From assembly GCF_963921235.1 (NCBI RefSeq), contig NC_086097.1:176082001-176146000 (forward strand): a stretch of 64,000 nt of DNA. The letters run 5' to 3'. Below the pieces are notes generated by a model. It saw only the letters and a list, made by a program, of their open reading frames with translations. It had not been told where the DNA came from and searched no databases. Origin of the DNA: Mobula hypostoma (taxonomy: Eukaryota). The position numbers and the translations under genes are program-made. Shown in pieces: positions 14,252 through 53,123 of this stretch (positions are counted from its first letter, which is position 1; every line of letters begins with the position of its first letter).

Positions 14252-15747
14252 ATGGCGAATGTTTGGCGCCAGAAAAATAACCAGACCGATGGTGGTGGTG
14301 TCACCTAAAATCACCGAAGTCTCCGGCAGCAGGGAGATGGATTCCAAGCTTTGGTGGAGGATTGTCTTTGTTCAACAACAGCAAAGGTTGGGCGACGTCT
14401 AGTGTATGAATCGCAATTGGGAACACCAATAGAGGTCAAATGCTGTAGTTAGATGAGCACTGCGGCAACAGAAGGCAACGGCAAACCACTGTTGAACTTT
14501 CTGCCTAGTCAATCATGGAAAGAAACAAAAGAAGGAAACCAGACAACGGCGTGAATGGAGTTGAGTCTAATCAACAGAACAACACCTCGCTCGGTAGGGG
14601 TAGTCATGTGCTGCAGGTGACACCAGACCATCATCCAGAGACTGTAAGCAATAGGGAAAGGCTAAGGGTAGCAACATGGAACATCCGTACACTTCACCAG
14701 AAAGGAAAGTTGGACAACACATTAAATGAAATGAAAAGGTTGGAAGTTGATATCTTAGGCCTGTCAGAAATTAGAAATTAGATGGACCGACAGTGGCAAA
14801 TTCACTAAGAATAGTTCTCTGATAGTTCTCTGATAATGTATTCTACAGCGTGTGTATGGAGTTGGAATTATTTTAGTTAAATTAAGGGATAACCCTTTTA
14901 ACATTAGCATAATCCAAGCCTACGCACCAACAAATAATGCAGATGAAGAGGATATCAATAAGTTTTGAAGATCTCGACAGTGCTTATGAGCAATGTAAAT
15001 CTCATGATATAAAACTGGTCATGGGAGATTTTAACACCAAAGTTGGACAGGAAAGGGCCCTTTGGATTAGGAAAGAAAAATGAAAATGGAGAAGGGTTTA
15101 CTGATTGGTGTGTCAGAAACAACCAAGTGACCACCAATACTTGATATAAAAACTATCCATGTAGATTATGTACTTGGATTAGCCCTGGAGATAGAACAAG
15201 GAATCAAATAGATTTCATTACCATCAATGAACACTTTAGAAATAATATCACAAATTCTAAAGCTACCCAGGAGCAGTCTGTGGTTCAGATCATCATCCAG
15301 TAACAGCTACTATTAAAACAAAATTAAAGAAACTGAAACGTGGAAAAAAGAGAAAGTATATGTTGGGAGAACTTAAAAAAGATAGCATACTTAAGCAACA
15401 ATTCAGGACAGCTGTAGAAGAACATTTCAACAAAAACATAACAACACCTATTTGGGACAGATTTAAGTATGCTATACAGCGATCAGCAGAGGAGATAATC
15501 CCAGTACAAGAAATCCAACACACCAACAAGGGGTGGGTAACCCAAGAACTTCTAGATCTGATGGAACAAAGAAGCTTAGTGAAGAATAATGAAGTGCAAT
15601 ACAGAGAGCTAGACAGACAGACCAGACAATTATACAATATTGCAAAGGAAGAATGGCTGAATCAAAAATGCAATGAAGTAGAAGGCCATATTAACAACAG
15701 CAAAGAAATGCACAAGAAAATCAAGGAAATTACTGGAATTAAGAAAC
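14110..15747 (+). mobile_element. RTE-clade LINE 5' portion (5' UTR, APE endonuclease, linker); RT and 3' end absent
   Basis: GAAGGCAACGGCAAACCACT 5' UTR motif; RVATWNIRTL..DILGLSE, IIQAYAPT, MGDFNTKVG, NQIDFI, GSDH APE motifs with stops and frameshifts. Confidence 0.9.
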
Positions 15748-16262
15748 CGTCTATCCACGGCCTCCTCTACTGTAAAGATGAAGCCACACTTAGGTTGGAG
15801 GAACAACACCTTATATTCCGTCTGGGTAGCCTCTGTCCTGATGGCATGAACATCGACTTCTCTAACTTCCGCTAATGCCCCACCTCCCCTTTGTACCCCA
15901 TCCGTTATTTATTTATATACACATATTCTTTCTCTCCTTTTTCTCCCTTTGTCCCTCTGACTATAGCCCTTGCCCATCCTTTGGGTCCCCCCCCCATCTT
16001 TCTCCCTGGACCTCCTGTCCCATGATCCTCTCATATCCCTTTTGCCAATCAACTGGTCCAGCTCTTGGCTCCATCCCTCCCCCTCCTGTCTTCTCCTATC
16101 GTTTTGGATCTCCCCTCCCCCTCCCACTTCCAAATCTCTTTACTAGCTCTTCCTTCAGTTAGTCCTGACAAAGGGTCTCGGCCCGAAACGTCGACTGTAC
16201 CTCTTCCTAGAGATACTGCCTGGCCTGCTGCGTAAACCAGCAACTTTGATGTGTGTTGTTTC
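15748..16262 (+). mobile_element. Penelope-like element 3' end / pseudo-LTR
   Basis: SIHGLLYCKDEATLRLEEQHLIFRLGSL..NIDFSNFR*; near-identical to 34360-34905 and 39801-40315. Confidence 0.9.
16161..16196 (+). ncRNA. Minimal type-I hammerhead ribozyme (core G->A variant)
   Basis: AGTC-CTGACAA-AGGGTCTCGGCCC-GAAA-CG-TC-GACT; differs from the CUGANGA core at one base. Confidence 0.7.
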
Positions 16263-21700: not shown

Positions 21701-22790
21701 CTTCTTCTTCTTTGGTTGTCCATTGAAATCCGATGACGATGTCCACTCCTTTAACAGTGAGATCTTTGATGACTATACAGTCCTATCCTGGACCCACAAG
21801 CTCTATTGCAGGTGGGACATGTATATGTGGTAGTGGTGGCAACCATGGCTGCATTCCTCCTGGCTCTCTTCTGCTTGTTCTTTCCATCTCCAGAATATGA
21901 AACCCATCTCTACACAGCTGTCGCCAAGTGGTACAGTCAGCAGCAACATCCTCCAGGTTCTCGGGTCTGATCTTGCACTTCCTTCAAGCATTCTTCATCT
22001 GATCCTTATAGCGCTTCTTCGGCCTTCCAGCTGAGCAGCGACCATGATGCAGCTGGCCGTATAACACTCTGTGGGGTAGCCGATATGGGGGCATCCTTAT
22101 CACGTGCCCCAGCCACTGCAGCTGGCGCTGGGTGATCATGGCCTCAATACTCCTGCAGTTGGTCTTTACAAGTATTTCAGTGTGAGGCACTCGCTCACGC
22201 CAGGTAATTCCCAGGATGCGCTGGAGGCAGCTTATGTGGAAGCGCTCCAAGGACTTGATGTGACGGCTGTAGGTTACCCAAGCTTCACAGCTGTAAAGGA
22301 GGGTGGTGACACAGACTGCTTGGTATACGGTGACCTTTGTGGAGGGACGAAGGCTCCTGTTCTGAAAGACTCTACACCGAAGTCTCCCAAAGGCAGCTGA
22401 TGCCTGTTTAATGCTGCTCTTCATGTCGTTGTTAATGCCACTATCCTCAGAGAGAATGCTCCCAGATATTTGAAAGATGGCACTACTGACAGCTTTTCAC
22501 CACCAACAGTGAAGGCAGGTAGAGTGGGTGGGATACTGGTACTCCACTGGCAAACTACTTCTGTCTTGGTGGTATTGACAGTCAGCCCCATCCTGCTGTA
22601 CACTCTCACCACCACAGCAAGGACAGTCTGAGGATCCTACAGAGTATGGGCCACAAGAACACAGTCGTCCACATACTGCAGCTTCAGGACCCGCTCTCTA
22701 TGGAGTTTGGTGGTTGCGTGGAGCCTCCTGATGTCAAAGAGGTTACCATCTAATCTGAAGTCCACTGCCACACCGCTGCTGTCTTCAATT
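21701..22790 (-). mobile_element. RTE (BovB/Expander-like) LINE, RT C-terminal half and 3' end
   Basis: LQYVDDC, FKYLG, ASAAFGRL..TLLYSCEAW, terminal YTCPTCNRAC..HQRSH zinc finger, (GAA)n tail. Confidence 0.9.
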
Positions 22791-50426: not shown

Positions 50427-50929
50427 ACATGTCACCATTTACAACCCTGAGATTAATTTTCCTGTGGGAATACTCAGCAAATCTGTAGAATAGTAACTAC
50501 AACAGAGTCAATGAAAGATCAAGTGGTGTGCAAAAGACAACTGTGAAAATGCAAATATAAATAAATAGCAATAAATAATATGTGATAACAAAATAAAGAG
50601 TCCCTCAAAGAGAGATCATTAAAGAGGAACATCTCAATGGATGGCTAACTGAGTGTAGTTATTCCCTTTTGTTCAAGAGTCTGATAGTTGAGGGGTAATA
50701 ACTGTTCTTGAACCTGGTGATGTGAATTCTGAGGCCCTTACCTGATGGCAGCAGTGACAAAAGATCATGGCCTGGGTGGTGGGAATCTCTGATGATGGAT
50801 GCTGCTTTCCTGTGGCAGTGTTTCATGTAGATATGCTCAATGGTTGGGAGGGCTTTAGCAATGATGTACTGGGCCAAAACCACTAATTTTGTAGGAGTTT
50901 CCATTCAACAGCATTCTATACCAAGCCAT

Positions 50930-51120
50930 GGGGTGTATGGGGTGTCAGGGAGGGGTAGCACCATTGGTGGGGAACATGTCGTGTCCTTTTCAAGGCGGTT
51001 AGTCCACCTTCGGTCCCCACCTGGCACTCAGCTATCACTTTGTGGCTCCTCGTAGCTGTTTGCATGTGACAGAGGCCACATCCCGGGCAACGGCTTCGAC
51101 AAGCCGGCTAAACCAGGTGA
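50930..51120 (+). ncRNA. HDV-like self-cleaving ribozyme
   Basis: P1 GGGGTGT/ACATCCC (51078-84); P2 TCACTTTGT/ACCAGGTGA; P3 GGC/GCC; L3 TCCTCG..; P1.1 CC/GG; GCAA; P4 CGGCTT/AAGCCG; J4/2 G-C(51108)-TAA. Confidence 0.8.
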
Positions 51121-51502
51121 GGGTAGCCGATGGGTCTCAAACCCTCGGTGAGATAGGGAGTTGTCTATCTCAGCATGTGAAGACAGACTCCGGCGGATTG
51201 AGCGGATGAGACCACTGGAAGGTCCAACAGTCAAGAAGGCGGTCTCTGCAAGCATTGTGGAATGTGTAGAGCAGGACAAGACACAGAAAACGTCCTGGTC
51301 ATCCACTGCACCTAGTCCCATCTCCAGCCGTCTCGACTCTGTCTTGCCACTGGATCCAGATGGGAATTGGGAAGAGAGAGTGAGGCTGACGCTGCGCAAC
51401 TCTCCCTCACTTAAATCCAAATCACGCGCTAGTCTCGACACCATCGCAATGGTGTCGAGGTCCTCATTGACATTGACGATGGATGAACATCACATCATCA
51501 TC
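50931..51502 (+). mobile_element. Non-coding non-autonomous RTE-type retroposon, full length
   Basis: Perfect 13-bp TSD ATACCAAGCCATG (50918-30, 51503-15); (CAT)n tail; 5' start shared with the RTE at 14110; inserted in a minus-strand Rex1 fragment (~50065-52460). Confidence 0.85.
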
Positions 51503-53123
51503 ATACCAAGCCATGATGCAGTCAGTGAAATCACTGCCCACTGCACTTCTATAGAAGTTTGTTAAAGTTTTAGGTGTCAAGCTGAAGTTCTGCAGTTTCT
51601 GAAGGAAGTATAGGTTCAACCATGCTTTCTTCAAAATTGCATTTATGTGCTGACTCCAGGACAGATCCTCTGAAAATGGTAACACACAGGAATTTAAAAT
51701 TACTAACCTTCTAAACTTCTGATCCTTTGATGAGGGCTGGCTCATGGATCTCCGGTTTCCCTCTCCTTCCTCTACAATCAGTTCCTTGGTCTTGCTGACA
51801 CTGAGTGAAAGGTTGTTGTTAGGACATCACCTAGTCAAATGTTCAATCTCCCTTCTGTATGCTGATTCATCACTACCTTTGATTTGGCCTAAAAAAAGTG
51901 GTGTTATCAGCAAATTTGAGTATGGTATTGGAGCTGTGCTTAGCCACGCAGTCATTGGTGTAAAGCGAGTAGAACAGGGGGCTACACACACAGCCTTGTG
52001 GTGTACCTGGGCTGATGGAGATTGTGGAGGGAATGTTGCCAATCCGAACTGACTGGAGAAGACAGGAAATCTAGGATCCAATTGCACATGGAGGTATTGA
52101 GGACAAGGTATTGGAGTTTATTGTTTAGCTTTGAGGGGATAATAGTATTGCATGCTGTGTAGTCAACAAAGAGCACCCTGATATATGCATCTCTGCTGTA
52201 CAGATGCTCCAGGATTGAGTGACGAGCCAATGAAATGGCATCTGCTCTGGATCTGTGGCTCTAGTAGGCAAACTGGAGTGAACTCAAGCTTCCTCTCAGG
52301 CAAGGGCTGTTATGTTTCATCACCACCCTCTCAAAACACTTCATCACTGTGGATGTAAGTGGAAATGGTCTATAGTCATTGAGGCAGGTCACCATGCTCT
52401 TCTTGGGCACTGGTATAATTGAAGGCAGCTTGAAGCAGGAGGGTACCACACACTGCCAAAATGAGAGGTTAAATACTATGAGGAAGTGAGAAATTAAGTA
52501 CATTGAGGTAGTAAAGAGAAACCAGAATGTAGAATACAGTACTGAATAAAACTGAGATGATATTGCATACGTCAGTACCATGCACTAGGAGTACTCAGAG
52601 GCCCTGTTTAAACTGGGGAACAAGACCACTACATCACATGTCATGGCATATGATATGAAATTTGTCTAGTGTCAAAACATAACAATCACTATAAATTACA
52701 AGGATAAATAAACAAAGCAAATAAAAACAAAGTGGTTTTCTTGGGTTCATGAACTGTGCAGAAACCTGATGACTGGGAGGAAGAAGCTGTTCCTAACTCA
52801 TTGAGTGTGGATGATCAGACTCCCTGAACCTCCTCTTTTTTATGCACAATTGATAAGGAGAACTTGACACACCTACTGTACACAAGCCCCCACATCTCTG
52901 GCTGACCCTGTAATTTCAGTCTCTGAGACTGACATCAGGGCATCCTTCAAGAAGTTAAATCCATGAAAAGTGTCCGATCCAAACAGGGTACACGCTCAAG
53001 TACTTAAGATTTTTGGAGACCAACTGGCTGAAGATTTTACAAACATATTCAATCTCTCACTCCTGTGGTCTGAGGTTCCCACCTGCTGCGGAAAGTCATC
53101 TATTCTACCAGTGCCCAAGGTGA

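Follow-up and report, generated by a model that had tools for sequence, protein, structure and literature searches.

A bipartite RTE derivative in Mobula hypostoma and a predicted pairing between the two untranslated regions of RTE LINEs

The element and its features

The stretch analysed here (64,000 nucleotides of Mobula hypostoma, contig NC_086097.1, positions 176,082,001 to 176,146,000; hereafter the window) carries on its forward strand a short retroposon at 50930..51502, which joins the 5' untranslated region (UTR) of RTE-P, a long interspersed nuclear element (LINE) of the RTE clade, to the last 45 nt of the same LINE. A sequence-only reading had described it as a 572-bp retroposon without coding capacity, headed by a ribozyme and mobilised by an RTE LINE. 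A perfect 13-bp target-site duplication does flank the copy (50918..50930 and 51503..51515); the G at 50930 belongs both to this duplication and to the family, most of 30 copies of which start with four G, so that a length of 573 bp and a 12-bp duplication describe the copy just as well.

From 5' to 3', a predicted hepatitis delta virus (HDV)-like ribozyme (50930..51126) is followed by the rest of the RTE 5' UTR (51127..51448), which matches RTE-B, another RTE family of this genome, at 76% and is homologous by eye to RTE-1_PSi and RTE-3_AMi as given in the supplement of PMC5786205. Within it, a conserved 8-nt motif (51426..51433), which stands at this place in RTE 5' UTRs, precedes the 5' arm of a perfect 11-bp stem (51434..51444). 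The loop (51445..51448) holds the deletion junction at which about 3.5 kb of the parent LINE was removed, and the 3' arm (51449..51459) starts at the parent's stop codon. A terminal RTE-type hairpin (51465..51481), which the earlier reading had not named, and a short-repeat tail (51486..51502) complete the element. None of 300 base shuffles of the element contained a stem like the one described.

As the sequence-only reading had stated, no match to an A box or a B box occurs in the element, which lacks the RNA polymerase III (Pol III) head of tRNA, 5S or 7SL type and has a LINE 5' UTR in its place. Its open frames of 110-190 codons have no consistent start, differ among six translated copies and are LINE UTR sequence, the open reading frame (ORF) of the parent having been deleted; no coding capacity remains. 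The (CAT)n tail described before is present in the window copy and is not a family feature: among 32 copies whose duplication could be measured, only this one has it, and most tails consist of AAC, AACC or AC units. In a comparison with 30 close copies, the window copy deviates by 5% from the majority base of the columns. Its insertion site (window 50780-51640) is itself an older repeat, whose flanks, once joined, match other loci at 71-73% across the site.

The parent LINE

The parent was found among 30 loci anchored at the element's 5' end, one of which (L234) reads on into a reverse transcriptase frame. L234 is 95.8% identical to positions 3-524 of a family copy and 92.3% identical to the window copy; after the shared region it continues with about 340 nt more of UTR, a broken endonuclease-reverse transcriptase (EN-RT) frame and then the last 45 nt of the element. 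The unique part of the parent gave 629 candidates in the genome, and a 21-mer from its 3' end gave 175 exact matches. Twenty copies were fetched, of which 11 have the 3' end and 8 have both ends, giving a length of about 4.08 kb. The 5' part of the short element matches the first 520 nt of the parent at 92-96%, and its last 45 nt match at 80-86% in the 11 copies with a 3' end. This LINE was absent from the loci read for two other patterns, one for the 3' end (30 loci out of 537) and one built on exclusion (30 out of 69).

The parent has the single EN-RT ORF, short 3' UTR and short tandem-repeat tail of the RTE clade. Its frames are 56-74% identical to the intact 1,069-residue ORF of RTE-B, which contains the Pfam domains RVT_1 and Exo_endo_phos, and its UTRs resemble Repbase RTE pieces by eye; the clade is assigned from these similarities. 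Two other candidate parents were rejected. RTE-A, an RTE family present in the window itself, has a different 3' end and a 5' UTR similarity not above that of shuffled sequences, and RTE-B is only a cousin, being 76% identical in the distal UTR and having no ribozyme region upstream.

An RTE LINE sharing both termini, as the sequence-only reading had called for, thus exists in the same genome, and the short element arose by internal deletion of it. Given the shared 5' UTR and the shared last 45 nt, the window element is almost certainly a bipartite non-autonomous RTE. Its description as a derivative of an RTE without a Pol III head holds, whereas the term minimal parasite does not fit, since about 520 nt of the parent 5' UTR are kept.

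Family size and mode of copying

A search of the 3.48-Gb genome returned 4,141 candidates; all 40 scored matches were full length, and the 39 other than the window copy were 93-94% identical. Exact matches numbered 1,693 for a 24-mer at the 5' end, 2,756 for a 24-mer in the middle and 537 for a CpG-rich 27-mer at the 3' end, with none for reversed controls. The middle 24-mer was exact in 17 of the 30 5'-anchored loci, from which we estimate that about 4,900 copies carry this region, LINE and chimera copies included. The element is therefore no one-off deletion product, and the check on copy number and length proposed earlier reveals a family of several thousand copies that are mostly full length.

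Among 30 loci anchored at the 3' end, 22 begin no more than 14 nt into the element and are near full length, and 8 are truncated at the 5' end. Exact duplications of 7-13 bp, mostly beginning with A after T, surround 32 of 50 full-length copies. Together, the duplications and the 5' truncations identify target-primed reverse transcription as the process by which the element has been amplified as a unit. Outside CpG sites, short copies differ from the column majority by about 2% and LINE copies by about 3%.

The possibility that each short copy was born afresh by a jump was rejected because the main loop variants track subfamily markers. A minority, whose 3' ends resemble those of the parent (12 of 118, in a set enriched for odd junctions), may represent separate births. 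Many copies (L118, L122, L126, L127, L131 and others) lack part or all of the 11-bp hairpin, and several of these losses are precise, as if the enzyme had skipped the folded stem.

Sequencing runs with seven organism labels and one unlabelled run contained 0.26-0.58 of the words of the element. Runs that we guess to be RNA contain such words as well, in contigs, which cannot show RNA ends; one run searched as raw reads gave 0 reads. Contigs from RNA aligned with 20 kb of the window revealed no host gene.

Complementarity between the 5' and 3' UTRs

The 11-bp stem had been taken for a 3' hairpin recognised by the reverse transcriptase. This reading is not borne out: the stem crosses the deletion junction, and its 5' arm derives from the 5' UTR. 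A purely 3' recognition element is more likely to be the terminal hairpin, which covaries among RTE-A, RTE-B, RTE-P and RTEs from metagenome contigs. The parent carries the 5' arm in its 5' UTR, just before a CAT repeat; its 3' arm opens at the stop codon, about 3.5 kb away. RTE-B has a different pair of arms at the same two places, complementary at 11 of 12 positions and differing from the parent by five double changes; all 12 5' arms and all 11 3' arms that could be read agree. We call this complementarity between the two UTRs the clasp.

A wider comparison used RTE loci from metagenome contigs, of which 73 were fetched and 24 near-full-length ones kept after one duplicate and partial loci were dropped. 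In a blind duplex scan, the 18 nt before the terminal hairpin were searched against up to 900 nt of 5' UTR in 20 RTEs, namely, the three families of this genome and 17 metagenome RTEs (7 of the 24 had no hairpin by our rule). The best site fell directly after the conserved 8-nt motif in 11 of the 20. In a matrix of 18 RTEs anchored on this motif, cognate arms had a mean energy of -13.3 kcal/mol versus -6.1 kcal/mol for non-cognate arms (0 of 100,000 permutations), with each RTE's own partner ranking first in 12 of 18 cases and shifted windows reaching -4.4 to -5.6. Thirteen families with a clear motif were selected for an ungapped register, in which 78 of 104 positions pair versus 53.9 expected (1 of 100,000 permutations), and two to four kinds of base pair occur at 7 of the 8 positions.

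Similar arms can be read by eye in supplement S1 of PMC5786205, pairing at 9 of 9 positions in RTE-1_PSi and at 10 of 10 in RTE-3_AMi (one G-U) and forming 8 bp in BovB. The junctions of WALLSI1, 1A and 2 and of MonoRep87A/B fall in short loops of this stem, so by this comparison the published marsupial and platypus bipartite SINEs (short interspersed nuclear elements) are cut inside the same structure. SINE2-1_EC shows partial pairing only, with its cut about 40 nt farther along.

Chimeras between a tRNA-like SINE and the LINE

A tRNA-like SINE of about 185 nt with two subtypes carries the 3' tail of the parent RTE (L120, L183, L190, L191 and L371-L400). A pattern consisting of the 5' arm, 0-8 nt and the start of this SINE, which by design does not reach joints elsewhere, gave 205 exact matches in the genome. 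Of 30 such chimeras read, 20 have the full 5' end, a duplication brackets the entire unit in 12, and both SINE subtypes are represented. Their spacers are of 18 kinds, and none of the 30 has a second 3' arm. Two LINE-type 5' markers are present in 22 of 30 and 15 of 20 chimeras, similar to LINE copies (20 of 27 and 16 of 22), while short copies rarely have them (7 of 117 and 10 of 106).

Insertion of the SINE into a genomic short copy was ruled out as the source of the chimeras by the LINE-type markers and by the missing second 3' arm. Along with the varied spacers, these features fit repeated jumps from SINE RNA to the LINE 5' UTR at the arm. Chimeras also make up 4 of the 30 unselected 5'-anchored loci (L175, L183, L190 and L191); no SINE joint away from the arm was seen among these 30 loci, of which only the short matches were inspected.

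A predicted HDV-like ribozyme

A descriptor of the HDV topology, allowing an insert in loop L3, matches only this element in 128 kb (both strands of the window), with a P1 start at 50930 or 50939. The predicted helices follow the nested double-pseudoknot order P1, P2, P3, P1.1 and P4, with a G at position 1. The 5' strand of P1 lies at 50930-36 (a possible second strand at 50939-45) and its 3' strand at 51078-84; P2 pairs 51032-43 with 51112-26, P3 pairs 51044-46 with 51075-77, the GG of P1.1 is at 51085-86, and P4 is at 51087-106. The conserved L3 core (51047-53) is present, as is a C at the catalytic position 51108 in J4/2 (51107-11). L3 is longer by a 21-nt hairpin (51054..51074), and J1/2 is predicted to fold into a long, P1.2-like hairpin domain (50940..51029).

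The 5' HDV-like fold of the sequence-only reading thus stands as a predicted fold, with compensatory changes in other RTEs. P1, P2, P3 and P4 differ and still pair in L301, L350, L359, L300 and RTE-A, a comparison of few families that carries no formal statistic. L350, a distant RTE with 49% amino acid identity to RTE-B, carries a 19-nt insert at the same place in L3. The strict descriptor is passed by 10 of 30 5'-intact copies, a share that would put the number of predicted ribozymes dispersed in the genome in the order of 1,000; the background is one core in 209,508 nt, and this single core is probably a piece of the element in L059. A search of Rfam gave nothing at gathering score or at a useful E value, and the long J1/2 and the L3 insert may defeat its models. 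The folding z-score of the whole element (-1.9) was uninformative. These data fit an HDV-like ribozyme at the element's 5' end, predicted to cut at the first G. The 5' strand of P1 occurs twice in tandem in the window copy (50930-50945), L350, L359, L300 and L110, offering two possible cut sites; the two strands are 3-9 nt apart in four cases and 31 nt apart in L110.

A possible role of the clasp and its alternatives

The covariation of the arms across RTEs and the clustering of junctions at the 5' arm suggest the following course of events. An RNA polymerase II read-through transcript would be cut at the first G by the predicted ribozyme, giving a defined 5' end. The arms, which covary in sequence and are predicted to pair in RNA, would bring the 5' UTR beside the priming end and loop out the ORF, and a jump of the reverse transcriptase from the 3' arm to the 5' arm would create the short element, which keeps the ribozyme, the clasp and the terminal hairpin and would be copied in trans. 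A tRNA-derived SINE with the same 3' arm would pair in trans with the 5' arm of the LINE, and the enzyme would jump there from the SINE's 5' end onto the LINE 5' UTR. In short, template jumps would land at the 5' arm because the clasp holds the reverse transcriptase next to it.

Several observations weigh against this interpretation. The clasp and the ribozyme are predicted RNA structures whose activity is deduced from sequence. Only the 10 of 30 5'-intact copies mentioned above satisfy the strict ribozyme descriptor, and the pseudoknot-free minimum-energy fold of the window copy pairs a P1 strand with a P2 strand. The only parent copy that was translated, L234, has no intact ORF. The 5' UTR site beats the best window inside the ORF in energy in only 10 of 20 RTEs, the blind scan missed RTE-A, RTE-B, L301, L302 and L321, and the pairing of RTE-A is weak (7 of 10 in register). 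The chimera pattern counts only joints within 8 nt of the arm, and some copies have lost the hairpin by precise deletion. Moreover, the anchor rule was fixed after the sequences had been seen, leaving 7 of 25 RTEs unanchored and 3 probably mis-anchored, and RTE families are related, so that permutations overstate their independence. We therefore give the blind scan and the table of pair types more weight than the permutation counts. We consider the clasp very likely to be a genuine conserved RNA structure.

Covariation points to selection on pairing and is silent on which step needs it. The clasp might instead serve translation, stability or export of the LINE mRNA, with an RNA loop replacing cap and poly(A) on a ribozyme-cut transcript and with arm deletions and chimeras as by-products. 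RTE RNAs cut as predicted would be capless, and the stop codon marks the start of the 3' arm, as such a role would suggest; however, non-coding derivatives keep both arms (this family and, in the published sequences available to us, WALLSI, MonoRep87 and Bov-A), and the chimeras put the reverse transcriptase itself at the 5' arm, making a function confined to the mRNA unlikely. The hotspot could also stem from a free RNA 3' end just past the 5' arm, produced when the RNA is cleaved, terminates early or is trimmed by an exonuclease at the CAT microsatellite, from which end-to-end template jumping would proceed with no need for pairing. The parent has a (CAT)n run directly after the arm, and the chimera spacers look non-templated, as described for end-to-end R2 jumps (PMC3414825). 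A free end nevertheless leaves the covarying complementarity unexplained, and the stretches seen of RTE-B, RTE-1_PSi and RTE-3_AMi have no CAT run at the arm, yet related bipartite elements are cut there. We judge this explanation improbable, and a free 3' end is in any case compatible with a clasp that protects it.

A single origin of the short element by deletion at the DNA level, through inverted repeats or microhomology, would leave the hairpin without a role in RNA. Recombination was favoured by Eickbush and Eickbush for R2 SIDEs (PMC3414825), and here the junction has a few bases of microhomology and the three main loop variants track subfamily markers, as expected from few masters. The covariation in autonomous elements and the hundreds of varied chimeras remain unexplained by such an event, and the short element has retained both arms. 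Deletion between inverted repeats in DNA usually takes the repeats out. This origin thus appears very improbable. On balance, we think that the clasp probably acts in reverse transcription and steers jumps to the 5' arm, and it likely explains why the RTE clade often spawns short parasites. A broader proposal, which we put forward tentatively and hold to be somewhat less probable than its opposite, is that RTE proteins recognise a composite RNA of clasp and terminal hairpin, a clade-wide cis element behind the bipartite derivatives, and that SINEs capture the enzyme by pairing of their tails in trans to the 5' arm of the LINE mRNA.

Other RTE families and repeats

RTE-B is younger (96-97% identity between copies) and has a similar 3' end, suggesting that it may have helped to mobilise the short element. 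One copy (L141:5553-8762, minus strand) has the unbroken 1,069-residue ORF, relatives of which are found at 80-82% amino acid identity in public assemblies, as would fit the horizontal transfer that RTEs are reported to undergo. In place of the ribozyme, RTE-B 5' ends have several different GC-rich sequences, and some copies (L157:975-1130, also L149 and L170) begin with a piece of a methylmalonyl-CoA epimerase gene (TIGR03081, E value 1.6e-14), which together suggest 5' capture of host sequence.

The window also contains an RTE-A fragment on the minus strand (21984-22496), belonging to a 4.2-kb family with 20,365 candidates, a canonical HDV-like 5' fold and a weak clasp. A further RTE-like endonuclease fragment, at 15261-15875, is joined to a repeat that we take to be of GIY-YIG type. 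In general, the repeats resemble those known from cartilaginous fish.

Comparison with known systems

Bipartite non-autonomous RTE LINEs are known, including RTESINE1/2, WALLSI3, MAR4_MD, RTE-N2_Lch and Bov-A (Kojima 2018, PMC5786205). The window element shares with them the RTE 5' end joined to the extreme 3' end, the short-repeat tail and the absence of a Pol III head, and its 5' part is homologous by eye to RTE-1_PSi, RTE-3_AMi and WALLSI1/2; it differs in its longer 5' part and in a ribozyme with an L3 insert. It is thus a new member of a described class, with the L3-extended ribozyme as a variant feature, and the stem matters more than the element itself. The accessible portions of PMC5786205 report no pairing between the two parts and call the restriction to a few clades unexplained. 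The literature that we searched, with patents and most subscription papers outside the search, gave no report of pairing between RTE 5' and 3' UTRs, and neither the clasp nor its connection with the junctions of deletions and chimeras appears to have been reported.

A covarying clasp would supply a testable reason for the existence of bipartite derivatives, predict where their deletions fall and account for the 5' UTR piece retained by RTE-type SINEs, and it offers a SINE a possible means of capturing the LINE enzyme through base pairing. RTE-1_MD has been turned into a gene insertion tool in which the payload lies between the cognate 5' and 3' UTRs, optimised by screening (PMC13708176), so that the stem provides a direct design rule to test.

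R2 SIDEs (PMC3414825) and RIME/NARTc of Ingi/L1Tc likewise combine a 5' HDV-like ribozyme with a 3' UTR, have lost the ORF and are moved in trans. They belong to other clades, R2 SIDEs are confined to rDNA, and the available text of PMC3414825 mentions no 5'-3' stem. The HDV-like ribozymes of RTE 5' UTRs (Ruminski 2011, as cited in PMC5786205 and PMC3774820; P1.2 domain, PMC4908430) have the same nested double pseudoknot, long structured J1/2 and predicted cut at the first G; as cited there, they differ from those of the window element and L350, which have a 19-21-nt hairpin inside L3. The terminal hairpin described at the 3' end of RTE LINEs and SINEs (Nishiyama and Ohshima 2018, PMC6007223) likewise shows compensatory changes, and the first base of the duplication agrees with the tail repeat, being mostly A in our family. 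That hairpin is local to the 3' end, whereas the stem described here joins two UTRs.
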